Made by a program: the position numbers and the translations under genes. A stretch of DNA of 64,000 nt from Bdellovibrionales bacterium. GTDB taxonomy: Bacteria; Bdellovibrionota; Bdellovibrionia; Bdellovibrionales; UBA1609. The notes beneath the pieces were generated by a model, which saw only the letters and a program-made list of their open reading frames with translations, had not been told where the DNA came from and searched no databases. Positions 5,394-51,350 of this stretch are shown one piece after another. How positions within the stretch are numbered: position 1 is the first letter of the stretch; each line of letters begins with the position of its first letter. Where the stretch lies: the NCBI GenBank assembly GCA_041740515.1, contig JBGSLV010000036.1, positions 4,429 to 68,428 of the forward strand. The letters are read 5' to 3'.

Positions 5394-6176
5394 ATGAAAC
5401 TTTACTTCATAATTTTGCAAGTCATTTTTTTTCAAATTTTATTAGCTTCTAATATATGGGCCAGTCCATTCTTTGCCAAAGAGAAGTTTCAGGTCGCTTT
5501 GGGTTTGCAAGCCGACTCACTGATTTATAAGCGAGGCATTATTACTTATGAAGGTCCTCAAGCCTTTCCAATTTATGCAGTGAGTTTATTTCATCCCGAT
5601 TTAATTTTGGCGGGCAGCGCCTTATACTATAAACAAAGAGTACTTTATGAAAATCTATATTTTCGAACACGACTTAATGTGAATTCAACAAACGATACGC
5701 CACTTTATTTTACAACTGAAAAAGAAGAAGACAGAATTCGAAGAGAAGACACAACTGAGCTTGACCTTTTCCTTGAGTATTTAATGCCCAACGAAAGTTT
5801 TTTGCGACTTAACTTGAGCCAAGATTTAGTAGCACACAAAGGACATTACTTAGAGCTTAGAGCAAGATTAGGTCTTCTAAATTTAATAAAAAACGAAGGT
5901 GAAAGAGCACTTATTCAGGCTGGGCTATTTGTCGCTGCTGGCTATGGGGACCAACGACATAATGAGTATTTTTACGGGCAAGGAGCCAATAAAAGTGGAG
6001 TTAACAATATTGAATATGGAATTTCAGTCGTAAGTCCAAAAGTGATTGATTTGTTTTGGCCGACTTTTACTATATCAAGATTTCATTTGTTGGGAGAAGA
6101 AAATAAAAATGGCTCTTTTGTCCAAGAACTTAAAGGTTGGTCAGCACAAGCTCTATTTGCTTTTAAAGTATGGTAA
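5394..6176 (+). CDS. putative outer-membrane beta-barrel protein (MipA/OmpV-like)
   Basis: Signal peptide MKLYFIILQVIFFQILLASNIWA with a GGAG RBS. Alternating amphipathic strands and a C-terminal aromatic residue (FKVW). The family call is tentative. Confidence 0.4.
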   Translation: MKLYFIILQVIFFQILLASNIWASPFFAKEKFQVALGLQADSLIYKRGIITYEGPQAFPIYAVSLFHPDLILAGSALYYKQRVLYENLYFRTRLNVNSTNDTPLYFTTEKEEDRIRREDTTELDLFLEYLMPNESFLRLNLSQDLVAHKGHYLELRARLGLLNLIKNEGERALIQAGLFVAAGYGDQRHNEYFYGQGANKSGVNNIEYGISVVSPKVIDLFWPTFTISRFHLLGEENKNGSFVQELKGWSAQALFAFKVW

Positions 6177-6212
6177 AAAATAAGTAAGGTTTAATCTCAA
6201 AATTACTTAGCC

Positions 6213-6584
6213 TTATTTAATAAAAATCAGTATCCACACCCCATAACCTACCACGGCGACTGCGCCCGCAAAATGAGTCAGCGAGGCTTTTTGATCACCG
6301 CAGCTTCTTACAACCATAAAATCCGACAAAGCCACAAGCCCGATACAAAATTGAATTAAAGCCATCTGAAGCCATAACTGATTAAAGTATAAAATTAAAA
6401 CAGTTAGACCCATAAATATATCCCTAATCCCAACACTTCTGACATAAGCTGTGGCCGTTCCACTTGCTTTGATACCAAAATTTTTGGACATAGGCTCTGG
6501 CTTCAAGATAGCGCCTAAGCCAATAAAAATTGTGGTTAAACCTATAAAAGGTGCTACAAAGTAAGAAAGTGCAATAAAGTCCAT
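6213..6584 (-). CDS. small 4-TM membrane protein (DUF4267-like)
   Basis: Four hydrophobic helices in 123 aa. The family assignment is tentative. Confidence 0.45.
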   Translation of the reverse strand: MDFIALSYFVAPFIGLTTIFIGLGAILKPEPMSKNFGIKASGTATAYVRSVGIRDIFMGLTVLILYFNQLWLQMALIQFCIGLVALSDFMVVRSCGDQKASLTHFAGAVAVVGYGVWILIFIK

Positions 6585-6752
6585 AATAAGCCCTCGGCAA
6601 TTGTTTTATTTTAGTTAATTCAACCACCATTTAATGACTAGGATCAAGTGAAGTAAAGGGTTTACCCAAAAATCATTATACTTATGGATTGCAAAAATGT
6701 TGAAATATGTTACTTGCCCTAATAAGTCATTTAAACCCTTGAAGGAGATTTT

Positions 6753-7043
6753 ATGAAATTAGCTAGTTTAGTAATTGCAGCATTAATGAGTTTTTCTTGT
6801 TCCGCTTTTGCAAAAGATTATAAACAATTGGCCGCAGAGATTGTTACCAACATGTATGGTCAACCTGGTGATAGCGTTGTTGTAAACCATTTTTCAAATC
6901 CAAATGCTTTTCAAGTTGTTCTTTCAAATGGGGCAACTGTTGGTAGCGCGTCCTATACGGTCGAATTTTTTGAAAATGAGGGTGGAGCTGATGAAGGTGA
7001 AGTAGTTGCCAACATCAAAGTCACTTATGAAGGTGGAAACTAA
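6753..7043 (+). CDS. small secreted protein (96 aa)
   Basis: Signal peptide MKLASLVIAALMSFSCSAFA. Confidence 0.45.
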   Translation: MKLASLVIAALMSFSCSAFAKDYKQLAAEIVTNMYGQPGDSVVVNHFSNPNAFQVVLSNGATVGSASYTVEFFENEGGADEGEVVANIKVTYEGGN

Positions 7044-7136
7044 ATTTATAAGTTTTAGCAAAAATTATGTTTAATTAAAAATTTACAAATCCTGTGTTTG
7101 AAACACAGGATTTGTGGTTTAAAGAAAACCACTTTG

Positions 7137-8366
7137 TCAAAGCTGTGCTTCGTCGCTCGTAATATCCTCATTGGCAATTTGTAAATAGTATTTAATGACT
7201 AACAAACGCGAACTATATTCAAGCCAAAAATTTAGCGGATCAGTTTTTTGTAAGTTTATAGCCCTAGCAAGCCTATCCCAAGCTTGCGAAAAATTTTGCT
7301 TGGCTTGAGTCGCCTCAAAATTAGAACTAATAAGCATAATTTCAAAATGATGAAGCCTGTGATGTATATACCCATGCGCTTCTCTAGGCGCGACCAGATG
7401 AGATTGTGGAGGTACAGGCAGCAATCCGTTCAAAACCAGAAGATTAAAAAAATCTAGGACACTGGCTGCATTTTGCGAGCCACTTTGATCGACAAAGTAG
7501 CTTAGAGCTATGGGATGATTATACAAACTTAAATCTAAACTGGCTTTGAAATCTTTTGGCAAATCTTGACCAATTTGGGTTTCGGCAAAGCATTTTAAAT
7601 TTTTAGCGCCCCATAAGATTAATTTTACTTCCCCTTTTGAGGTTGAAATAAAAGCGATTTGATCTAATAAAAAATGAATAAGTGTTGCCAGATACTCTAA
7701 CCTGTTTTTATCGGCAAAAGGTTGATTAGTAGAATTAGTAAAAAGCTGTGCCGCTGAACTTAAATCCCCTAAAATTACGGCTCGTTGATAGAGCTGAATC
7801 GCCAGCTCAAAATGTTGCCTTAAGTTAGGTTGAGCCATAAGAAGACTTACGGAAATAAGATCGTCGATGTTAAGTAGTGGAATTTTTTTATGGGCATAAA
7901 GTTCAAATAAATAACTGTCATCCAAGACCCCTGTTCTCTCATCAAAAAAAAGTTGCACAGAGCCTGCTTTGGTATTTTTATAAGGGAAGGCTTTGACCTG
8001 ATCAGCATAGATGAATTCATACCCCGGCAGAAAAGTTTTTGCCCAAATAGCTAAATCATGCTTTAGCATTTCAGGAAACTGACCTTGAGATCTTTGCAAA
8101 ATATTAAAAAGCTCAGGTGCACCTTTCATACTTTCGATACCGTGTTTAAAAAATTCAACAGCCTTAATGAAAGCATCTATCGAAGTGTTTTTTGAAGAGT
8201 TGTTTGCATCCGCTAGTTTCGGAAAAGGCAGTTTTAGAGTCTTAGATATATGCATAAGAGGCTCTTTAAGATTTGAAGCCGCTAAGTAATTTGAACAGGT
8301 CATTTCTGCCACTGCGCTCTTTGAAGCAAATACCAAAACCAATATAACTAAATTTACAAACTTCAT
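7137..8366 (-). CDS. secreted hypothetical protein (409 aa)
   Basis: Signal peptide MKFVNLVILVLVFASKSAVA. Overlaps the upstream gene by 4 nt (ATGA), indicating an operon. Confidence 0.55.
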   Translation of the reverse strand: MKFVNLVILVLVFASKSAVAEMTCSNYLAASNLKEPLMHISKTLKLPFPKLADANNSSKNTSIDAFIKAVEFFKHGIESMKGAPELFNILQRSQGQFPEMLKHDLAIWAKTFLPGYEFIYADQVKAFPYKNTKAGSVQLFFDERTGVLDDSYLFELYAHKKIPLLNIDDLISVSLLMAQPNLRQHFELAIQLYQRAVILGDLSSAAQLFTNSTNQPFADKNRLEYLATLIHFLLDQIAFISTSKGEVKLILWGAKNLKCFAETQIGQDLPKDFKASLDLSLYNHPIALSYFVDQSGSQNAASVLDFFNLLVLNGLLPVPPQSHLVAPREAHGYIHHRLHHFEIMLISSNFEATQAKQNFSQAWDRLARAINLQKTDPLNFWLEYSSRLLVIKYYLQIANEDITSDEAQL

Positions 8367-37189: not shown

Positions 37190-38167
37190 ATGACTATTGA
37201 TTTCACAGTGATCTTTAATCTGATGGGTAGCTTAGCTATTTTTCTTTTTGCGATTGAATATCTTGCCGATGCTTTAAAAAATCTTGATCTTGAAAATTTA
37301 AAAAAATGGTTACTTTACTCTTCTAAAACGCCGACCAGAGGTCTTATTACCGGTGCTATAACCACAACCCTTCTAGACTCTTCTTCGGTTGTGATTATTT
37401 TTTTAATCACTTTTGTGGATGCAGGTTTGATAAGTTTTTCTAATTCTTTGGGTATAGTCTTAGGAGCTAATATTGGAACAACTATTTCTAGTCAAATCAT
37501 AGCTTTTCAGATTGGTGACTATGCCGCTTTACCTCTTATAGTTGCCGTTTTCACAAAACTTCTGGTCTCTAGTAAAAAAGCTCAGTGGATGTGCCAATTT
37601 GTAATTGGCGTTAGTTTGATATTTTTTAGTTTACATCTTATGAATTTATCAGTTTTGCCTTATAAAAATTCTGCCGAACTGCAGTCGTGGATGGCAGGTT
37701 TAAATAATCCTTACACAGGTGTCCTTATTGGAGCTTTTATAACTCTTATCATCCAATCCTCTTCAGCTACTGTAGCAATTGCGATCACTCTAGCTAGTCA
37801 AGGCATGATGTCTTTGGATGCAGGGATAGCTATTATGCTTGGATCAGAGATCGGCACATGCTCTGACACTTTACTGGCTACTATTGGTCGATCCAGAGAA
37901 GCCGTACGAATTGGTATGTTCCACCTTTTTTACAATATTTTTGCAGTTATAATGGGACTAATAACTTTCGCATGGCTCAAAGGCTTTGTTGTATGGGTTG
38001 ATGGCGGTGGAGCTAATACAGCCCGAATGATTGCCAATGCTCACGTGGCTTTTAATGTGGGAGGCGCTTTGATCTTTTTACTTTTAATTCCTGTGTGTCG
38101 AAAAATCTTACTGTTAACCCTTCCTCAAAAACCTGCGAAATTAACACCAAAAATTTTAGCGCAGTAA
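37190..38167 (+). CDS. Na/Pi-cotransporter family protein (PNaS/NptA-like)
   Basis: Duplicated hallmark motifs 'GANIGTT' and 'QSSSAT'. Confidence 0.7.
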   Translation: MTIDFTVIFNLMGSLAIFLFAIEYLADALKNLDLENLKKWLLYSSKTPTRGLITGAITTTLLDSSSVVIIFLITFVDAGLISFSNSLGIVLGANIGTTISSQIIAFQIGDYAALPLIVAVFTKLLVSSKKAQWMCQFVIGVSLIFFSLHLMNLSVLPYKNSAELQSWMAGLNNPYTGVLIGAFITLIIQSSSATVAIAITLASQGMMSLDAGIAIMLGSEIGTCSDTLLATIGRSREAVRIGMFHLFYNIFAVIMGLITFAWLKGFVVWVDGGGANTARMIANAHVAFNVGGALIFLLLIPVCRKILLLTLPQKPAKLTPKILAQ

Positions 38168-38189: not shown

Positions 38190-38221
38190 TTGACCCTGTA
38201 GTTAAGTACAGGGTTTAAAGT
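38190..38221 (+). promoter_or_regulatory. MerR-type promoter candidate: TTGACC -35, 19/20-bp spacer containing the dyad ACCCTGTA-N6-TACAGGGT, then -10-like TTAAAG/TAAAGT
   Basis: Spacing and dyad position mimic the Tn501 merT promoter (TTGACT-CCGTAC..GTACGG-..-TAAGGT). The -10 ends 7 nt before the ATG, implying a leaderless mRNA. An alternative reading is an intrinsic terminator for the upstream gene. Confidence 0.45.
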
Positions 38222-38227
38222 TAAATT

Positions 38228-38647
38228 ATGAAAGCGAAATCAAACACTAGTTTAACTATTGGCAAAGTTGCAAAGCTGGCCCATGTAAATTTAGAGACAG
38301 TGCGCTTTTATGAAGCTAAAGGTTTAATCGAAAAACCTATTAAAAGCGGCGCATTTAGATATTATAGTTTAGACCACATAAAAAAAATAAAATTTGTAAA
38401 AAAAGCGCAGGCACTGGGATTTACTCTCGCTGAAGCCAAAAGTTTATTGGACTTAAATTTAACGAAGCAAGCTAAGTGTAAAGATGTGTTAACTAAAACC
38501 CAAATTAAGATTTTAGAAATAGAGCAAAAAATTGCAGATTTAAAAAAAATGCAAGCTTCACTTCGAAAACTTTCCAAGTGCTGTGTAGATCAAGAGGTCT
38601 TATTATCTGAATGCCCTATTCTTGACGCTTTTGGAGCCACTATATGA
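38228..38647 (+). CDS. MerR-family metal-sensing transcriptional regulator
   Basis: HTH 'LTIGKVAKLAHVNLETVRFYEAKGLI'. Coiled-coil dimerisation helix. Cys84, Cys118/119 and Cys129 mimic MerR Cys79/114/126 spacing. Confidence 0.75.
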   Translation: MKAKSNTSLTIGKVAKLAHVNLETVRFYEAKGLIEKPIKSGAFRYYSLDHIKKIKFVKKAQALGFTLAEAKSLLDLNLTKQAKCKDVLTKTQIKILEIEQKIADLKKMQASLRKLSKCCVDQEVLLSECPILDAFGATI

Positions 38648-39162
38648 CTATCAATATAAAATCGACATTAAGCCATGAATCGACAAATCTGCAGCCTAAG
38701 GCCTTAAAAATTTTATTCTTATGCACTGGGAACTCTTGTCGATCTCAGATGGCCGAGGGATGGGCTAAATATTATTTTCCTAATCAGGAAAATTATTTGT
38801 TTTTTTCCGCAGGGACAACCAAGCACGGCATGAACCAAAGAGCTATTCAAGTTATGCAAGAAGTTGGCGTAGATATCTCTTCCCACTATTCAAAAACTGT
38901 TGAAGATTTAAGAGCAAGTTATACAGATCCTAGGGCTTCCGAACTGTTATTTGATTTAGTTATTACCGTATGTTCTGAGGCTCATGAAAATTGCCCCTAT
39001 ATTCCTGCTCAACATATTCTACACATGGGTTTTGAAGACCCACCAAGACTCACGAAAAATTTAAGTCAAGAAGAAGAGATCTTAGAAGTGTATCGTCGAA
39101 TCCGTGACGAGATTAAACTCGCCGTTAAAAACTTTGATTTTTATAGCTTGGAGTTTAAATGA
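38644..39162 (+). CDS. arsC: arsenate reductase, LMW-PTP (thioredoxin-coupled) type
   Basis: P-loop 'LCTGNSCRSQMAEG' (CX5R) and the Cys pair 'VCSEAHENCP' spaced 7 apart, as in B. subtilis ArsC Cys82/89. ATGA overlap with the regulator gene. Confidence 0.8.
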   Translation: MTINIKSTLSHESTNLQPKALKILFLCTGNSCRSQMAEGWAKYYFPNQENYLFFSAGTTKHGMNQRAIQVMQEVGVDISSHYSKTVEDLRASYTDPRASELLFDLVITVCSEAHENCPYIPAQHILHMGFEDPPRLTKNLSQEEEILEVYRRIRDEIKLAVKNFDFYSLEFK

Positions 39163-40193
39163 AAAACAATGACTTAAAGATAGGTTTTTTTGAACAGTAC
39201 TTAACTATTTGGGTTGGTGCTTGCATCATTTTAGGATTAATTTTAGGCCAATTTTTTGGACCTATCTTTGAAGATTTAAGTTCTATGACGATTTCCAATG
39301 TAAATCTACCCGTAGCTTTATTGGTTTGGATGATGATCTTTCCCATGATGGTGCAAGTGAATTTCAGCGCCATAAAAGATGTGGGAAAAAATCCTAAAGG
39401 TTTAATTTTAACCCTAGCCATCAATTGGCTCATCAAGCCTTTCACAATGGCTTTGATCGCTTGGATTTTTTTTACAATGGTCTTTGCTTCCTATTTGACG
39501 GATCTACAAATAGAGCAATATATGGCGGGAGCTATTTTATTAGGTGCAGCACCTTGCACCGCTATGGTTTTTGTCTGGTCCTATTTAACCAAAGGTGATC
39601 CCGAATACACGCTGGTGCAAGTAGCCATCAATGATTTAGTTTTGCTCGTGGCTTTTATACCTATCGTTAAATTTCTTTTAGGGGTCACCAATATTGAAAT
39701 TCCATTTGCTACCTTATTTTATTCGGTATTTATCTTTGTTGTTATTCCACTTGTGGCTGGGCTCATCACCAACCGGATTTTAATAAATACCAAAGGGCAA
39801 ACTTGGTTTGAATCTGTGTTTTTACCTCAACTTAAGCCTGTATCTATTTTAGCTCTTCTTAGCACTCTGATTTTACTCTTTGCTTTTCAAGGTGAAACTA
39901 TTTTGTCGTCACCTCTTCATATCTTGATCATTGCCGTTCCACTTACTGTGCAAACCTATTTAATATTTTTTGTCAGCTGGTATTTAGGAAAGAAGTTAAA
40001 GCTCACTCATAAGGTTTTAGCCCCCGCAGCCATGATAGGTGCCAGTAATTTTTTCGAACTGGCCGTAGCTGTGGCTATAGCTTTATTTGGGTTAAATTCT
40101 GGGGCGGCTCTAGCTACAGTCGTAGGTGTATTGATCGAAGTGCCCGTCATGTTATCCCTTGTGAAGCTAGCAAATCGATGGCGTTTTGAATGA
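39159..40193 (+). CDS. acr3: arsenite efflux transporter, ACR3 family
   Basis: 'FFEQYLTIWVGACIILG' N-terminal signature of Acr3/ArsB(YqcL) and a 10-TM BART-fold topology. ATGA overlap with arsC. Confidence 0.8.
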   Translation: MKNNDLKIGFFEQYLTIWVGACIILGLILGQFFGPIFEDLSSMTISNVNLPVALLVWMMIFPMMVQVNFSAIKDVGKNPKGLILTLAINWLIKPFTMALIAWIFFTMVFASYLTDLQIEQYMAGAILLGAAPCTAMVFVWSYLTKGDPEYTLVQVAINDLVLLVAFIPIVKFLLGVTNIEIPFATLFYSVFIFVVIPLVAGLITNRILINTKGQTWFESVFLPQLKPVSILALLSTLILLFAFQGETILSSPLHILIIAVPLTVQTYLIFFVSWYLGKKLKLTHKVLAPAAMIGASNFFELAVAVAIALFGLNSGAALATVVGVLIEVPVMLSLVKLANRWRFE

Positions 40194-40233
40194 TTCTTTC
40201 TTGACAGCTTAAAGCTGGGCTAAGCACACTTAA

Positions 40234-41097
40234 GTGATGGGCTTTAAATGCGAGCACAATACCATCTCCCTTCGAAATTTAAGCTGGGCCATTGGTATAA
40301 ATTTAGTTTTATCGATAGTACAGATTCTAGCGGGCCTGCTGTCAGGAAGTTTATCCCTGATTGCGGACGCCATTCATAACCTCAGTGATGCTATCAGTTT
40401 ATTAATAGCTTTTGTTGCCGAAAAAATATCGCATTGGCCTGCCAATCAAGACTTAAATTTTGGCTATGGACGAGCTCAAATTATTGGGGCGTTAATTAAC
40501 AGTTTGTCATTAATCCTAGTGGCTATATATATTATTTACGAAGTCATTTTAAGATTTTTAGAACCTAAACCCATTAATGGATGGTGGGTTATAATCGTGG
40601 CAAGCTTTGCTTTAGTCATTGATTTACTGACTGCCAAATTGACCCATGAGGGCTCAAAACACAACATCAATATGCGAGCGGCTTTTATACATAATGTAAC
40701 CGATGCTTTGGCCTCCATTGTCGTCATTTTTTCTGGCGTGTTGGTGCTACTTTATGACTTTTACATTTTTGATCTACTGGCCAGCCTATTAATTGCTGGA
40801 TATATTTGTTATCAATCGATAGGTTTAATTCAAGATTGTCTTCGACATTTAATGCAAGCTGTTCCTGCTGACATCAATTATCAAGATGTGCAAAAAACAA
40901 TCTTGAATTGTACTGAAATCAAAGAGATCAAAAATTTATACATTTGGTCCATGAATGAAAGCCAAATAGCACTTCAGGCCCATTTAATATTACAAGACCA
41001 CAAGACCATAAATCAAAGTGAGCTGCTTGTAAGGCTTAAAAAAAGCATGTTAGAAAATTACAAAATTCAGATGACTACTTTTGAGCTTTCACCTTAA
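40234..41097 (+). CDS. cation diffusion facilitator (CDF) family metal efflux transporter
   Basis: 'SLIADAIHNLSDAISLLIAF' and 'HN.TDALASIVV' TM2/TM5 metal-site motifs. C-terminal cytoplasmic domain. Confidence 0.75.
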   Translation: MMGFKCEHNTISLRNLSWAIGINLVLSIVQILAGLLSGSLSLIADAIHNLSDAISLLIAFVAEKISHWPANQDLNFGYGRAQIIGALINSLSLILVAIYIIYEVILRFLEPKPINGWWVIIVASFALVIDLLTAKLTHEGSKHNINMRAAFIHNVTDALASIVVIFSGVLVLLYDFYIFDLLASLLIAGYICYQSIGLIQDCLRHLMQAVPADINYQDVQKTILNCTEIKEIKNLYIWSMNESQIALQAHLILQDHKTINQSELLVRLKKSMLENYKIQMTTFELSP

Positions 41098-44462: not shown

Positions 44463-47400
44463 TTAGGGTCCTGATTCCACTAGTATCTGCGAACTTCGAA
44501 TAGTTATTTGACCTTGTGATGGTGAAACTCGTGATACAAATTTTTCATTTATTGGAAGACCCACAATCTCTGGACTTCGATAGTTATTTAAAGTCGCAGG
44601 GTTGATAAAAATTTGTGATCCCGTCACTAAATTTAATCCTAGATTGCCAGAACTTGCACTATGATACATTAAATCCACTGACCCTTGCGATAAACTGTCG
44701 GTATCGGCTGTCACTTGATAATATACTTTAGGATTAGTAAATTGGCTTCGATCAAAAATAGCGCGTTGATAAGTAAGTATGGTTTCAACTCCAATCATGC
44801 GATTTAAAGATCCAATTCTATAAACTAAACTTGTTTTTGATAAATTTCTAAGTTTTACCCAAAGCCCCGCTTTGTGAATTCGGACGGAACCAGTTGAGCA
44901 GTAATATTCACATCGTAAAACTAATCTGTAATTGTGCCCTTCATTGACCCCACGAAATTGTAAAACACCTTCGTTAAATGGAATACTAGTTATTATTACA
45001 CCAGGTCCTGAAAATCGTGTTTCGGTCATAGCTACTAATTGGCTTGTGTTGTTATTGTAAAGCCCTAATATTCCTTCGGCTCCATTTACTGTTGAAATTA
45101 ATGTCTCAAGTTCCCAAGCGTTATACTCAATGATTTTATCTAAACTTAAAGCTCTTCTGGTAAATAGACTAGCTTGGGGGAAATCATGATAGACAGTGTC
45201 TGATGTGCTATAAGCAAAAACATCAGCGTCAACATTGATTGGGGATTCATCAGAGCTTAGCAAAGGATAATAGATTTTTGTCTTAGTAGCATTGACTTGA
45301 TTAACAAGTAATTTCGCCGAGTACACCGACAGCTGCCCATCTGAAGTCGTCTGTTCAAGCTCTAGTCGAAGTTTCTGTGCCCCCGAATTTATAGTTATAG
45401 GGGATTTAAAAACAGTAGGTTCAAAAGTATTTGCTGGAATTGTTATAAAATCCATCATCACATCTGACTCATTAACAATACCTACAGATCTAGCCGTTGT
45501 ATCAAAATTAGTTCCTATAACTTCAAACTCTAACCCTGTAACACCATCGTAGTCGTTAGTGTCAAAAGTTGTTAAAGTTCTATTGAAAGCTATGTTGTTA
45601 GAGCCACTAGATGCAATCGCTAAGTCTGTTAACTCAATAGGAACTTGAAAGCGTAAAGATCCATCTCTAATGATACTGACAGTGTTGGAACTCACCGATC
45701 TGCGACCATTTGCATACACTCCTCTTACGGCATAATAATAAGTCACAGCTGCGACCACATTACTGTCTAATGCTGAAGTTGTTACAGAAGTTTGTACCAC
45801 GCCGTAAGGACCTGAAGAGGATTCGGATCTTAAAACTTCATACTGTGTCACGGATGGGATAACATCCCAATTTAATTCAACAGCTGAGGTACCGTTTACG
45901 GCTGTTAAATTTGTCGGACCACTCACTAACAGGACCGAAACTTGATTGGAATTGTTAGAAATAACGCCTGAACTATTTACCGTTCGAAGTACATAAAAAT
46001 AACTATCCCCAGGAATTACCGTGGTGTCCAAGTACTCTGTGGTAGCTGGAGGTAACGTAGCTATGACACTGTAAGGTCCCCCTGAATTTACGGATCGAAG
46101 CAGTTCATAACTTGCGATGCTAGGAACATTCGGCCAATATAGCTCTACAGAATTTGTTGACTGCGAAGCTAAATTTAATCCAACCGGAGTTTGAGGTCGT
46201 ATTGATACATTCACAGGGTCACTGATCAGCGAGGTTGCCATTTCACTGCCGTTGATCGCTATAGCTTGATACTGATAATAATAGGTCTGAGCTGGTGCAA
46301 TTGAAGCGTCGACATAAGAGGTCGTTGGTAACCCTGAAGCAATGAGTTCAAAATTAACAGCGTTTGTTGAACGATATAAATTATAGGTATTTGCATTTAC
46401 GACACTTGCCCAAGATATTCCAATTGAAGTGGTAGTGTTAAATTGCACATCTGGCTTAGGCGTGCTCATTTCAGACTGGATCATGACTTCATTAGAAGGT
46501 GCACTTTCATTAAAGCCATTCAAAGCTGTAACTCTAAAATAATACGTAGTTCCTGCTACTAAACCACTGACAATAGTCCCTGAAGAGCTTGTAGTGTTCT
46601 GGATCGGGGCCCCGTAAACTCCGGAAGTTGTTGATCGATAAATATTAAAAGAAGTTCGCCCAGAGACATCCGTCCAAGTTAAATTCACATCATTTCCAGA
46701 TCCAGTGTTTTCAGCATGCAATTGCACTGGAGACAGTGGTATACGCCCAGGACTAAAACCAACGCTAATTGGCGAAAGCAATTGCAGTGGAGGATAGTTT
46801 GTCTTAATCCGATAAAAATATACGTTGCCATTGCTTGCAGTATTATCAGTGAAGTTTGTCATTGCATAGTTTGTGCTAATGGCACTAAAGGTTGATCCAT
46901 CCGTTGATCTTTCAATATCATAATCAATAGCCCCTGCCATTGGTGTCCATGACAAAGTCACTTGATTATTACCCGTTATTCCACTGGGGGCTGAAGCTGG
47001 CATAAATGTCCATGCTTGAGCTACTGGTGAAGTTTGAGGAACACCGGCAACAATGGCCACCACTCTGATGTAATATAAACTTTGAGGATTTAAGCCAAAT
47101 ATGGTTGCCGTATTCGTTGCTGTTGTGGTTGCTATTGTATATGGACCTGCAATGTTTAAGGCCCGTTCCACACGATAAGAAGTTGTGGCTGGAACACTTG
47201 GCCAATCTACACGCATGAACGTATCACCAAGAACCGTTAAGCTGATATTAGAGGGAAGGGTGGAAGTAGTTATTTGACCTAACACAACTTGAGATGATTG
47301 ACCCTCGGTTAAATCCGAAAAGCGCGCACGTACTCGGTAATAATAACCCGTGTTCACGTTGACTGCAGTGTCTTGATAAGTTGCCGTAGAGGCAACATCG

Positions 47401-50400
47401 TAATTGACAAATGGACCATCAAAAGAATTGGCTCTGGCTATGACATAGTCTTGCGCGCCAGCTACAGCATTCCAAGATAGTTGCAAACGATCCGATTGAG
47501 GAGCCATTGCAAAACCAGTTATAGGTGCATTTCTAAATCCAACAGTATTTGTAGGAGCTGTCTCATGACTTCCCCAAACCGCTGTGATTCGAAAAAAATT
47601 CATACCAGTTAATAAAGGTGCGGAACTCATAAATGTAGTGTTAATATTTTGGACAAAAGTAAATGGTCCAAGTTCATTGGCGGATCGGTACAATCTGAAA
47701 TTATTAAAATGTGAAGGTGATATCCAATCCAGCTGAACTCTATTATCTGCAGCAATGAAATTTAAAATCAAATTTCCCGGCGCAGATGGATTAACGTTTG
47801 CTCTTGCCGCTTTGATAGCAGTTGGATAACCGACGTAAATTTTATCGCCATCGATATCAAAAAGATAAGCTTGAACATAATAATAAGCCCCATCCATATT
47901 GGCTGTAGGATCAACCAAAGAACGTGGTGTATAGCCATCCACTAAAACTGAAAAATTTTTGTCAGGGTCTGAAGATTTATATACAGTGTAGAATAAATCC
48001 CCGGAATTGTAGGACCCAAAAGTGCTTGGTGCCGTCCAAGAAAGAATCACTTCGCCATCTCCAGGAGCAAGATTTAATTGTGGCGAATCCGAAGAGTAAA
48101 AACCGACAATATTTGAGCCCCCACTTTCAGAAAGTCCCCATCCTGCTCTGACACGAATGTAATTGATGTTATCATTGCCAAAACCACAATCATCAAATGA
48201 AGCTAAATCAGTAGAACCCATAAGCCCTAAAGAATTTTTTGGAAAGCCTTTATAAACATTAAATGTGTCATAGTAAGAAGATCTGGACCAATTTATTTTT
48301 AAACCCTGACCACCACCGCAACTAGCAATGGCATTAAGTGGAGTGATTGACAATAAGGTCGGAGCACTTGGATTAGCTTTTGGGACAGCTGAAGCTATAT
48401 TAGACTGGGAACTTTCACCGGCAGGATTACTGGCTTTGATTAAATAAAAATAAGTTTGTCCGTTCGACAAACCTGTATCTGCATAAAAAGTTGAAGTCGT
48501 TGTAACTCCTAGATCTGTAAATGGTCCGGCAAATTGTAAAGATCGAAAAATTCGATAAGTGACATTTTCAGGAAATCCACTCCAAGTCAAATTCACTCTT
48601 GAATCACCAACAGTAGTGACCAAATTATTAGAAGCAATTGGTGTTGGAGCTGCAATTGTGATACTAACTTCGGGGGAACTTTGGCTTCGCCCCGTAACAT
48701 TGGATGCAAACACGCGGTAATAATACGTCTCGCCATCAGTAATTTGTAAATCGTTATAGTTATTTCCAATCTGTTGACTGCTTAATACTGTATAAGGGCC
48801 ACCCGACTGGTTTGATCTTTCCACTGTGTATCTAGGAGTGGGATTTGCAAGTCCATCAGGAAGCCAAGACAAATTGACCGAACCATTTACATTGTTACTA
48901 GCCACCAAATTCGCTGGCGGTAAATTGTTATGTGTAAAATTGGTTAAAAATCGGCATGCAGATAAAGTTCCGACTTCATTTATTGTTTGGCCATACAAAG
49001 CCATTGTTGCATTCGGGTTTACTTGTATTGGCACACCAGTGGTTGTCAACAGAGTGGGATTTGCGGAAGTGACTAAACTTGTGCAGATGGAATTAGCATA
49101 AATACTTAAGTTAACTCGATTCATAAAATCTGGACTTAATGTGTAAGACCCAAACAGTCTAATCTCTTGGTTATAAGACGGAGAAGTAGGTGTAGTGCTT
49201 TGAAAGACAGGTGCGGCAGGTACAAGAATATTGTAAGTGTAAAAAGTTAAAAGCGTACAATTACTTTCATTACCTGCCGCATCGAAGGCTTTAGCATAGA
49301 TGGAAGTTTCAGCGTTGATATTCACATCAATCGTTATTCCTGTTGCATTAAATTGATTTGGTGTACCCTCACCCAGTTTTGTTACACAGGAGTCACTGTC
49401 AAAGAATTCAACTCTTGAAGGTGGCAACTGACTGGCTGGATTATCTAACACATCCCCTGAAATAGTCGGTGTCGAGGATTGATTGTTTGGTGAAATGGGA
49501 GCAATCCCGCTGTATGTTGGATTTACTGGAGACACATTATTATGAATATAAGTCGTTAAAAAAACACAAGCTGAAAAGTTACCGTAAATATCAACAGCGC
49601 GAGCAAAAAGCTGAGTGGTCGAATTTAAAGGCAAATTAGCAACAACTCCCGATGCTGTATATTGCCCTCTGGAAGCTGATGCAATCTGTGTGGTACAGGT
49701 TGGGTTGGTAAAAATCCGTATCGTTTCAATTGTAGGATCAGCTGTTCCTAAGATAGCAGGAGTACTAGAAAATCTTGAAGGCGAAGCAGGTACTGTGAAA
49801 GCAAATGTAGGATTCGGCGCAGGCACACTTGAATGTTCATAACTGGCATGGAAGGTACAATCGGACATATTACCTTCAAGATCAGAAACGCGGACGTAGA
49901 TGGGAGTGGTCGAATTGGTATCTAAGTTTAGCAAAATACCATTCACTTCATAATCATCGATATCCCCTTGACCCACACTGACAGTGCATAATTCATCTTT
50001 ATAGAAAAACAAATTTACTGTTCGAGCTGCCGCTTGCCCGATGATCAAAGGAGTTGTTGTTAAATTCGTAGGCGAAAGCGGATCTGTTCTATTAAACACT
50101 GGGTTTTCAGGAGGTGTAGTATTATGAATATAACTTGTTAAAAATGTGCAGTCCGAGCCATTATCAGAGCTATCAAAAGCTCGTGCGTAAATATTGGTTG
50201 TGTCATTGCTGCGTACATTTGTAACGGCACCAATTCCAATAAAATCAGGACGATTTCCAAAACCGATAGTGTTTAAACACAAAGCCGAATCATAAAAAAT
50301 AATCTCATCTGTATCGCTACTTGCCGAACCAAAAATTCTTGGCAAAGTCTTTTGGTTTGTGGGCGACATGGGACTTGCCCCTAAATATCCAAGAGCAGCT

Positions 50401-51350
50401 GGGGGTAAATTGTCATGAGTGTAAGTGGTAAATAAAGCGCATACGGATGGGGCTCCCATCCCATCAACGGATCTTGCATAAATAACTGTGGTTGCATTTT
50501 CAGGCAAAGTTACATCAAAGCCTGCCGTCTCAAAGTCACTGGGATCACCCGAAACCAAAAGGTTCATACAACCAGAATCTGTGTACAACGAAACTGTGAC
50601 TGAACCCACCGAGGTTGTACCTCTTATATTAGGCGCAAAAGAAGCTTTTGAAGGTGACAAAGGTGTAATGGCTAACAATTCAGGAAAGGGACTATTTACA
50701 TTTGAATGCGTAAAATCTGTCATGTAAACACAGCCCGACAATGTGCCAATAGGATCTCTGGTTCTTGCATAAATAGATGTTGTTTGGTTTAAAGGAAGCT
50801 GCACAGCTATGCCAGATTGCGCAAAATTACTTGCTGACCCCGAAGCTAAAGCTTGTGTGCAAATAGCGTCACTAAAAAATTCAACCGTTGACGACAATGG
50901 CAGTGCCTGCCCAAACAAACCCGGAGCCGTAGTAAATCTTGAGGGTGATTGGGGCGATATGGCAGTAAAAATTGGCTCCCCAGGAACTAAAGGGTCATGA
51001 CTAAAGTTTTCAAGCAGCAAGGTACATGTATTTAAAGCTTGCGATTTCACATAAAAATCAGTGGGCACGTTCACCGGAATTTGAACTAAAATTCCCGAAC
51101 TATTAAACTGCGCTACAGTAGCTTGGCCTACACTTACAGTTTGACATAAGTTATCTGTATGTACGGTGAGCAGGTCTAAATTCAAATAATCACTTGAAGT
51201 AACGCCAATAAGTCTTATTTGGGCCAAGACACTTGTGTAATCAATAAGTTGGCTAGAAGTCAGCGATACACTTAAATCTTCAGAAGAGTTTACACGCTCA
51301 CCATCAGCACAAGAAACTTGTAGCCCAAAAGCAAACAGTAATATTAGCAA
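44463..51350 (-). CDS. giant surface (lipo)protein: ~9 N-terminal ~100-aa Cys-pair modules, >=10 fibronectin type III domains, C-terminal beta-sandwich/lectin-like region
   Basis: Repeated 'P..P.F....P.SP.......G........FY.D..C......G...DF....G........T.IYAR..D..GN.S.C....Y.H'. FN3 hallmarks 'YYRV.A.N..G.S..S'. TTG start at 51350 (bounded by an in-frame TAA). Confidence 0.8.
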   Translation of the reverse strand: MLILLFAFGLQVSCADGERVNSSEDLSVSLTSSQLIDYTSVLAQIRLIGVTSSDYLNLDLLTVHTDNLCQTVSVGQATVAQFNSSGILVQIPVNVPTDFYVKSQALNTCTLLLENFSHDPLVPGEPIFTAISPQSPSRFTTAPGLFGQALPLSSTVEFFSDAICTQALASGSASNFAQSGIAVQLPLNQTTSIYARTRDPIGTLSGCVYMTDFTHSNVNSPFPELLAITPLSPSKASFAPNIRGTTSVGSVTVSLYTDSGCMNLLVSGDPSDFETAGFDVTLPENATTVIYARSVDGMGAPSVCALFTTYTHDNLPPAALGYLGASPMSPTNQKTLPRIFGSASSDTDEIIFYDSALCLNTIGFGNRPDFIGIGAVTNVRSNDTTNIYARAFDSSDNGSDCTFLTSYIHNTTPPENPVFNRTDPLSPTNLTTTPLIIGQAAARTVNLFFYKDELCTVSVGQGDIDDYEVNGILLNLDTNSTTPIYVRVSDLEGNMSDCTFHASYEHSSVPAPNPTFAFTVPASPSRFSSTPAILGTADPTIETIRIFTNPTCTTQIASASRGQYTASGVVANLPLNSTTQLFARAVDIYGNFSACVFLTTYIHNNVSPVNPTYSGIAPISPNNQSSTPTISGDVLDNPASQLPPSRVEFFDSDSCVTKLGEGTPNQFNATGITIDVNINAETSIYAKAFDAAGNESNCTLLTFYTYNILVPAAPVFQSTTPTSPSYNQEIRLFGSYTLSPDFMNRVNLSIYANSICTSLVTSANPTLLTTTGVPIQVNPNATMALYGQTINEVGTLSACRFLTNFTHNNLPPANLVASNNVNGSVNLSWLPDGLANPTPRYTVERSNQSGGPYTVLSSQQIGNNYNDLQITDGETYYYRVFASNVTGRSQSSPEVSITIAAPTPIASNNLVTTVGDSRVNLTWSGFPENVTYRIFRSLQFAGPFTDLGVTTTSTFYADTGLSNGQTYFYLIKASNPAGESSQSNIASAVPKANPSAPTLLSITPLNAIASCGGGQGLKINWSRSSYYDTFNVYKGFPKNSLGLMGSTDLASFDDCGFGNDNINYIRVRAGWGLSESGGSNIVGFYSSDSPQLNLAPGDGEVILSWTAPSTFGSYNSGDLFYTVYKSSDPDKNFSVLVDGYTPRSLVDPTANMDGAYYYVQAYLFDIDGDKIYVGYPTAIKAARANVNPSAPGNLILNFIAADNRVQLDWISPSHFNNFRLYRSANELGPFTFVQNINTTFMSSAPLLTGMNFFRITAVWGSHETAPTNTVGFRNAPITGFAMAPQSDRLQLSWNAVAGAQDYVIARANSFDGPFVNYDVASTATYQDTAVNVNTGYYYRVRARFSDLTEGQSSQVVLGQITTSTLPSNISLTVLGDTFMRVDWPSVPATTSYRVERALNIAGPYTIATTTATNTATIFGLNPQSLYYIRVVAIVAGVPQTSPVAQAWTFMPASAPSGITGNNQVTLSWTPMAGAIDYDIERSTDGSTFSAISTNYAMTNFTDNTASNGNVYFYRIKTNYPPLQLLSPISVGFSPGRIPLSPVQLHAENTGSGNDVNLTWTDVSGRTSFNIYRSTTSGVYGAPIQNTTSSSGTIVSGLVAGTTYYFRVTALNGFNESAPSNEVMIQSEMSTPKPDVQFNTTTSIGISWASVVNANTYNLYRSTNAVNFELIASGLPTTSYVDASIAPAQTYYYQYQAIAINGSEMATSLISDPVNVSIRPQTPVGLNLASQSTNSVELYWPNVPSIASYELLRSVNSGGPYSVIATLPPATTEYLDTTVIPGDSYFYVLRTVNSSGVISNNSNQVSVLLVSGPTNLTAVNGTSAVELNWDVIPSVTQYEVLRSESSSGPYGVVQTSVTTSALDSNVVAAVTYYYAVRGVYANGRRSVSSNTVSIIRDGSLRFQVPIELTDLAIASSGSNNIAFNRTLTTFDTNDYDGVTGLEFEVIGTNFDTTARSVGIVNESDVMMDFITIPANTFEPTVFKSPITINSGAQKLRLELEQTTSDGQLSVYSAKLLVNQVNATKTKIYYPLLSSDESPINVDADVFAYSTSDTVYHDFPQASLFTRRALSLDKIIEYNAWELETLISTVNGAEGILGLYNNNTSQLVAMTETRFSGPGVIITSIPFNEGVLQFRGVNEGHNYRLVLRCEYYCSTGSVRIHKAGLWVKLRNLSKTSLVYRIGSLNRMIGVETILTYQRAIFDRSQFTNPKVYYQVTADTDSLSQGSVDLMYHSASSGNLGLNLVTGSQIFINPATLNNYRSPEIVGLPINEKFVSRVSPSQGQITIRSSQILVESGP

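Follow-up and report, generated by a model that had tools for sequence, protein, structure and literature searches.

A Bacteriovoracia-specific branch of mercury-type MerR regulators, probably recruited to the control of arsenic detoxification

Bacterial arsenic sensing has been described almost wholly through the ArsR/SmtB repressors, of which R773 ArsR, AfArsR and CgArsR are examples. An ArsR protein represses and arsenite, As(III), releases it, whereas a regulator of the MerR type stays bound and activates by reshaping its promoter. Here we report that an arsenic resistance (ars) operon of a Bdellovibrionales bacterium (GenBank assembly GCA_041740515.1, contig JBGSLV010000036.1, positions 4,429 to 68,428 of the forward strand; this stretch of 64,000 nucleotides, the whole of the DNA analysed, is called the window, and coordinates count from its first letter) is headed by the gene of a 139-residue MerR-family regulator of the metal-sensor type (38228..38647, + strand), and that the same arrangement recurs in related genomes. 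The protein probably represents a branch of mercury-type MerR metalloregulators which is specific to the Bacteriovoracia and was recruited to the control of arsenic detoxification. We regard it as very likely that it controls the ars operon from a MerR-type promoter, and we infer that its physiological effector is rather probably As(III) or antimonite, Sb(III).

The closest described systems are the mercury-responsive MerR proteins (Hg-MerR), namely Tn501 and Tn21 MerR and the Bacillus megaterium/RC607 MerR (5crl, 4ua1). The regulator shares with them a winged helix-turn-helix, a long coiled-coil helix and a C-terminal metal loop, as well as the three ligand cysteines; the operator half-sites of its clade are near identical to theirs (TCCGTAC-N4-GTACGGA), are likewise set within an over-long spacer, overlapping the -35 element; and, as in the mer operons of Gram-positive bacteria, the regulator gene is the first of the operon that it would control. 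Unlike Hg-MerR, the clade stands before arsC-acr3(-arsH) and without mer genes (locus L014 excepted), its promoter spacer is 20 bp against 19, its metal loop holds nine rather than eight intervening residues together with an extra vicinal cysteine (C118), and the score of the regulator lies below the NCBIfam equivalog cutoff. Furthermore, the -10 element abuts the regulator start codon, from which a leaderless transcript would follow, and in the window the operator has diverged to ACCCTGTA-N6-TACAGGGT.

Two other groups of regulators invite comparison. With ArsR/SmtB the regulator would share the sensing of As(III)/Sb(III), the control of arsC, acr3 and arsH and the position at the head of the operon, and its clade carries an NCC...C motif resembling the AfArsR site NCCHGTRDC; the fold and DNA-binding domain, in contrast, are unrelated. 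ZntR, CadR and PbrR are likened to it by predicted structure, the best Foldseek match being PbrR (5gpe; template-modelling (TM) score 0.84), by the CDF exporter gene downstream in the window genome, and by the 20-bp spacer, which PzntA has as well. The regulator nevertheless scores below the cutoffs of these families and below its own score for Hg-MerR, its clade's operator is of the Hg-MerR type, and the clade is linked to ars genes and not to Zn, Cd or Pb exporters.

The N-terminus of the protein is a MerR-type winged helix-turn-helix matching PF13411 (MerR_1; 6e-16) and PF00376 (MerR; 3.5e-9), both above their gathering scores, and the remainder, matching PF09278 (MerR-DNA-bind), supplies a coiled-coil dimerisation helix, a cysteine-containing metal loop and a C-terminal helix. 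The AlphaFold2 model (pLDDT 89.6) has the same parts, with the winged helix-turn-helix followed by a long helix at residues 84-117, a loop at 118-129 and a helix at 130-136, and superposes on PbrR, CueR, CadR and MerR with TM scores of 0.72-0.85, those for the first three being 0.80-0.85. The top NCBIfam match is Hg-MerR (TIGR02051), at 116.3 bits against an equivalog cutoff of 150.85; the two ZntR models follow with 104.8 (cutoff 143) and 96.8 (cutoff 167.95), then CueR with 94 and CadR-PbrR with 81.3 (cutoff 151.45). Because all scores stay below the cutoffs, the regulator falls outside every curated NCBIfam subfamily. Among sequences of the Protein Data Bank (PDB), the mercury MerRs 4ua1 (2.7e-22) and 5crl (1.8e-20) match best. 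The initial annotation had left the placement of the regulator among the MerR subfamilies to a phylogeny, and a neighbour-joining tree, built without support values and with Escherichia coli ZntR and CueR as references, places the clade, L014 included, as one group inside the mercury-MerR radiation and away from both E. coli proteins.

The regulator has cysteines at positions 84, 118, 119 and 129. C84, C119 and C129 align with the Hg(II) ligands C79, C114 and C123 of B. megaterium MerR and C82, C117 and C126 of Tn501 MerR, and the metal loop contains no histidine. The initial annotation read Cys84, Cys118-119 and Cys129 as reproducing the MerR metal-binding spacing; the positions are indeed MerR-like, but the C119-C129 loop, with nine intervening residues across the clade against eight in Hg-MerR, is one residue longer. 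The number of loop residues, eight in mercury MerR and seven in CueR, has been connected with how large the metal centre is, and the eight-residue spacer is said to fit HgS3 (PMC4551924). All three aligned cysteines are conserved throughout the clade, and so is the vicinal C118 (motif A-N/T/Q-C-C-x9-C-P) except in L014 and L016.

In AfArsR, the AsS3 site is formed within a single chain by a Cys-Cys pair and a third cysteine, in the peptide NCCHGTRDC (PMC11212059). Given that precedent, a single-chain As(III) site made of C118, C119 and C129 is chemically plausible, and the NCC...C motif conserved in the clade recalls the AfArsR peptide. The two exceptions at the vicinal position differ from one another. 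L014 has S-C, a single cysteine in place of the pair. L016 (5989-6414), an Oligoflexia regulator heading arsC-acr3-arsH, carries its pair where the metal loop ends (C...ACC) and not at the helix end, a location which suggests that the third and fourth thiols can be repositioned.

Directly upstream of the regulator gene, on the + strand, lie a -35 hexamer TTGACC (38190..38195), read directly and in register with the TTGACT of 17 related promoters, and a -10 hexamer TAAAGT (38216..38221), whose position matches the TATATT, TATAGT or TAAAGT of relatives (L007 also has TAAAGT). The operator dyad ACCCTGTA-N6-TACAGGGT (38193..38214) lies in the 20-bp spacer between them (38196-38215) and takes in the final three bases of the -35 as well; its arms form, by direct reading, a perfect 8-bp match. 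Searched for in degenerate form, this dyad has a single occurrence in the 64 kb, where shuffles predict 0.07. As a variant, it keeps the symmetry centre of the clade consensus ACTCCGTAC-N4-GTACGGAGT, which is itself an operator of the Hg-MerR type. This is the MerR-type layout of a dyad operator in a 19-20-bp spacer between -35 and -10, and it is kept in the 17 relatives. The sequence TAAATT then separates the -10 from the ATG (38228..38230), 6 nt past it, at which transcription is predicted to start (+1). No Shine-Dalgarno sequence precedes the regulator because the promoter fills that space, and there is no alternative in-frame start ahead of the helix-turn-helix. The over-long spacer with the operator inside it and the -10 abutting the start, first described in the initial annotation, hold at these coordinates and in 16 further distinct loci; its 19/20-bp spacer can be narrowed to 20 bp (a spacer of 19 bp would make the -10 TTAAAG).

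Alignment of the upstream regions gave 18 distinct promoters, that of the window and those of 17 relatives, which share one design: TTGACT (TTGACC in the window), a 20-bp spacer with CCGTAC-N4-GTACGG(A/G)G, TA(t/a)AnT and a conserved ATG(AAA). The shared dyad is in essence the classical mer operator TCCGTAC-N4-GTACGGA. In the window it reads CTGTA...TACAG, with the invariant GTA/TAC core kept about the same symmetry centre as in the clade, and the C-to-T change at its seventh position is found in one or both arms in L006, L007, L011, L015 and L088 as well. Between -10 and ATG there are 6 nt in the window promoter and in those of 14 relatives; of the other three, one has 5 nt and two have 7 nt.

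With only 6 nt between the -10 and the start codon there is no space for a leader, and the fact that diverged genomes keep this interval argues strongly, if indirectly, for a leaderless transcript. We therefore consider it likely, from the promoter layout, that transcription starts at the regulator's own ATG. A 10-nt inverted repeat (38219-38228 and 38248-38257, 90% complementary) brackets the regulator start codon. It would be present only in transcripts begun upstream and absent from a leaderless one, and might restrict the translation of read-through RNA.

Downstream of the regulator, and in the same orientation, are arsC (38644..39162, + strand), encoding a 172-residue arsenate reductase, probably of the low-molecular-weight protein tyrosine phosphatase (LMW-PTP)/thioredoxin type, and acr3 (39159..40193, + strand), encoding a 344-residue arsenite efflux permease. 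The arsC product (PF01451, LMWPc) has a CTGNSCRS P-loop (CX5R) and a C-X7-C pair (C-SEAHEN-C); its best NCBIfam model is TIGR02691 (arsC_pI258), at 127.7 bits against a cutoff of 174.3, and it is 52-60% identical to the arsC products at the same position in relatives. It is about 29 residues longer than those proteins (172 against 141-145), mostly through an N-terminal extension before CTGNSCRS, and no alternative start codon is present. Acr3 scores 400.3 bits with TIGR00832 (cutoff 282.8), carries a GAAPCTAMV motif and is 69-72% identical to the syntenic gene product of relatives. The regulator/arsC and arsC/acr3 junctions are both ATGA overlaps, with a GGAG Shine-Dalgarno sequence 7 nt ahead of the arsC ATG and 5 nt ahead of that of acr3. 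The coupling of the regulator to an LMW-PTP arsC and acr3 through ATGA overlaps, with a CDF gene after them, is as first annotated.

The link between regulator and ars genes extends beyond the window. A search of 5.8 billion proteins with the regulator returned only two close relatives, at 55-57% identity, all others being at most 49% identical. The contigs of the closest relative (P0002) carry MerR, LMWPc, SBF (acr3), FMN_red (arsH), a small open reading frame, a Glyoxalase-family gene and SulP, and no CDF. Scans with a three-sequence alignment over one genome per GTDB species and JGI metagenomes yielded 88 loci (L numbers). In these, regulators at least 50% identical came only from Bacteriovorax, Halobacteriovorax, Bacteriovoracia, Bdellovibrionales and Oligoflexia genomes or from unassigned metagenome contigs, and the clade comprises regulators from 11 GTDB species representatives and from metagenomes.

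Searches by tblastn with the window proteins placed arsC next to the regulator, 3' of it and in the same orientation, in 15 distinct loci, with acr3 following in 14 and the contig ending within arsC in one; in Bacteriovorax sp. DB6_IX, the next gene after the regulator is that of ArsH (TIGR02690, 375 bits). The regulator accordingly heads ars genes in 16 further distinct loci (14 with arsC and acr3, one with arsC to the contig end, one with arsH alone), arsH lies 3' of acr3 in 10 distinct loci, and two clade contigs stop at the regulator. Identities between members of the clade span 44-91%, with the window protein an outlier at 51-60%, and flanking genes vary from locus to locus; because of this divergence and variation, the linkage is not an artefact of near-identical genomes. 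No arsC/acr3 adjacency was seen among loci whose regulators are at most 47% identical, most of which carry merT, merP, merC or merA. Likewise, none of the 44-47% relatives P0019, P0009 and P0017 showed ars linkage, their neighbours being a P-type ATPase, an FMN reductase or merTPA.

A further gene recurs 3' of acr3 in some of these loci. It encodes a protein of 238-244 residues and stands directly after acr3 in L007 (7846-8580) and after arsH in L001 (2859-3575) and L009 (5758-6480). The protein joins a C-terminal ArsI/CadI-like VOC domain, scoring below cutoff, to a conserved N-terminal extension of about 100 residues that has no family match.

The initial annotation had proposed that a MerR-family protein, not ArsR, heads the operon. 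A tblastn search with R773 ArsR, pI258 ArsR and SmtB as probes (E <= 1) agrees, finding no ArsR/SmtB homolog in the window, nor in the sequence that flanks the clade loci; the same probes did match the outgroup loci L020, L048, L051 and L052. The annotation's further suggestion, that the cassette was horizontally acquired, found no support. The G+C content of the cassette (0.36-0.40) matches that of its flanks (0.33-0.40), and the regulator clade is native to the lineage although its flanks differ between genomes. The genes most like the regulator, arsC and acr3 come from the same lineage, and only the CDF gene and the Na/Pi symporter gene upstream are peculiar to the arrangement in the window.

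These observations are consistent with the following model, in which a regulator dimer would bind the dyad within the over-long 20-bp spacer of a sigma-70-type promoter and, without effector, hold the promoter closed. Binding of As(III), and probably also of Sb(III), to cysteine thiolates would under-twist or kink the spacer, realign the -35 and -10 elements and activate transcription; the thiolates may be the Hg-MerR set of C84' with C119 and C129 or, within one chain, the triad of C118, C119 and C129. We infer, then, that the effector would turn a repressor into an activator through distortion of the DNA. Transcription would begin at the A of the regulator ATG, or 1-2 nt from it, giving a leaderless transcript of the translationally coupled regulator, ArsC and Acr3 genes that, in the window genome alone, would extend into the Zn/Cd-type CDF exporter gene. 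Because the regulator lies in the operon that it would activate, induction would be positively autoregulated.

The alternative that survives best, although we judge it unlikely, is that the protein is a true Hg(II) sensor which drives the ars genes incidentally, or a dual responder to Hg(II) and As(III). Its best family and PDB matches are Hg-MerR, and both the three Hg ligands and the Hg-type operator have been kept. In addition, the sister regulator of L014 heads genes for MerC and a thioredoxin-like protein. That locus (5989-7355), in full, has the regulator followed by a MerC-family gene, an MTH895/ArsE-type thioredoxin-like gene and a CopZ_Nterm-like cysteine-rich gene, and its promoter follows the clade design with 7 nt from -10 to ATG; it may retain the mercury-type ancestral state of the clade. 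There is, however, no mer gene in the window, nor one next to any clade member but L014, whereas outgroup loci do carry mer genes. The Hg-MerR score falls short of the equivalog cutoff, and the metal loop is one residue beyond the eight-residue spacer said to suit HgS3 (PMC4551924). A signal from Hg alone for arsenate reductase, arsenite efflux and ArsH would, moreover, be physiologically illogical.

Less probable still is a sensor of Zn(II)/Cd(II), similar to ZntR or CadR, or of thiophilic metals broadly, for which the CDF exporter would be the true target and arsC-acr3 merely co-transcribed. The CDF gene (40234..41097, + strand) encodes a ZitB/CzcD-like divalent-cation exporter of 287 residues (PF01545, ZT_dimer; TIGR01297, 230.8 bits) with HxxxD motifs, read directly, in transmembrane segments TM2 and TM5. 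Between it and acr3 is a spacer of 40 nt (40194..40233, + strand), which has a TTGACA (40201-40206) but offers no suitable -10 in the range of 16-19 nt from it, and in which no terminator was called; we rejected a promoter of its own for the CDF on this ground. Its start codon (GTG at 40234 or ATG at 40237) has no Shine-Dalgarno sequence. In favour of such a sensor, the exporter gene lies downstream without promoter or Shine-Dalgarno sequence of its own, the ZntR models are the second-best NCBIfam matches, and a CC...C motif and a 20-bp spacer are also features of ZntR. On the other hand, tblastn found no CDF within 6 kb of any of the 16 related clade ars loci, and yet regulator, operator and ars genes are conserved there. 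Every ZntR and CadR model scores below its cutoff, the regulator groups with the Hg-MerRs and apart from ZntR and CueR, the clade operator (CCGTAC-N4-GTACGG) is of the Hg-MerR type and the metal loop of the regulator lacks histidine. Regulation of the CDF by Zn or Cd was an outcome that the initial annotation named as fatal to its proposal, and across relatives the regulator travels with arsC, acr3 or arsH and never with a CDF. The CDF gene is an add-on particular to the window genome and probably co-transcribed with the ars genes.

The weakest alternative, also foreseen in the initial annotation, would make the dyad mainly an intrinsic terminator of the upstream Na/Pi symporter gene, with the ars genes transcribed by read-through or from another promoter and the likeness to -35 and -10 elements due to chance, and it is very improbable: the dyad does lie 26 nt past the symporter stop codon, and the region has a folding energy of -17 kcal/mol (z = -3.0) with TTTAAAGTT after it, but the terminator scan did not call it, its T-tract is weak, and where the upstream gene is different or divergent (as in L006, L012, L013 and L092) the dyad stays aligned with both promoter hexamers and has GTGTATATT, not a run of T, behind it, so that we rejected termination as its main function.

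The symporter-family gene itself (37190-38167) is on the same strand and directly upstream of the ars operon, an adjacency seen only in the window genome; phosphate transporters are a route of arsenate entry. Elsewhere in the window, and unrelated to the ars genes, an open reading frame for 2295 residues (44463-51350, - strand) apparently encodes many fibronectin-type-III-like repeats.

Several points weigh against an arsenic-responsive, leaderless operon under this regulator. Effector specificity is not readable from sequence, and all three Hg ligands are retained, so that a response to Hg(II), Cd(II) or Zn(II) is possible; the exporter downstream in the window genome is of the Zn/Cd type. 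The CC motif is suggestive only as a signature of arsenic, since some Hg-MerRs in the aligned set also carry vicinal cysteines (DDCCASH) and E. coli ZntR has such a pair. The clade is not exclusively linked to arsenic, L014 (53% identity) being the sole exception, and the tree that unites it carries no support values. An ArsR could be encoded elsewhere in the genome, beyond the 64-kb window. Finally, a second in-frame ATG abuts the -10 (TATATT-ATGnnn-ATG) in nine relatives (L002, L007, L008, L011, L015, L016, L086, L087 and L088), and in these same nine the GGAG of the right operator arm lies 8 nt upstream of the extra ATG, which the window lacks. It is possible that this GGAG serves there as a Shine-Dalgarno sequence and allows conventional, leadered translation of read-through transcripts.

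With these points taken into account, we lean towards the view that the clade is the first MerR-family metalloid sensor, an activator responsive to As(III)/Sb(III), and possibly to methylarsenite, that evolved from a mercury MerR within the Bacteriovoracia and heads a leaderless, self-amplifying operon. Activation by MerR-type proteins is in itself a familiar mechanism, and the novelty lies in the class of effector predicted here, in the operon that is regulated and in the conservation of a leaderless layout. The full-text literature searched, which leaves most subscription journals outside its coverage, held no description of a MerR-family regulator of arsenic resistance. None appears in a 2024 review of metallostasis (Chem Rev; PMC11672702) or in a 2026 survey of metalloregulators (bioRxiv 10.64898/2026.05.01.721428), which contains no word beginning with 'arsen', and NCBIfam has no model for a MerR-type arsenic regulator.

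Since MerR-type promoters are tight and strongly inducible, the clade may offer an alternative scaffold for arsenic biosensors. Its closest relatives are true mercury regulators with a near-identical operator, and together they form a natural series for studies of metal selectivity, in which, if our reading is right, small changes, an added residue in the loop and a vicinal cysteine, would have adapted a three-thiolate Hg(II) site to a metalloid. The conserved position of the -10, six nucleotides ahead of the ATG, makes this a testable case of a leaderless metal-resistance operon in Bdellovibrionota. Should the proposed effector prove correct, the clade would represent an independent origin of arsenic sensing outside ArsR/SmtB, and a second, mechanistically opposite solution in which promoter distortion takes the place of derepression by repressor release.

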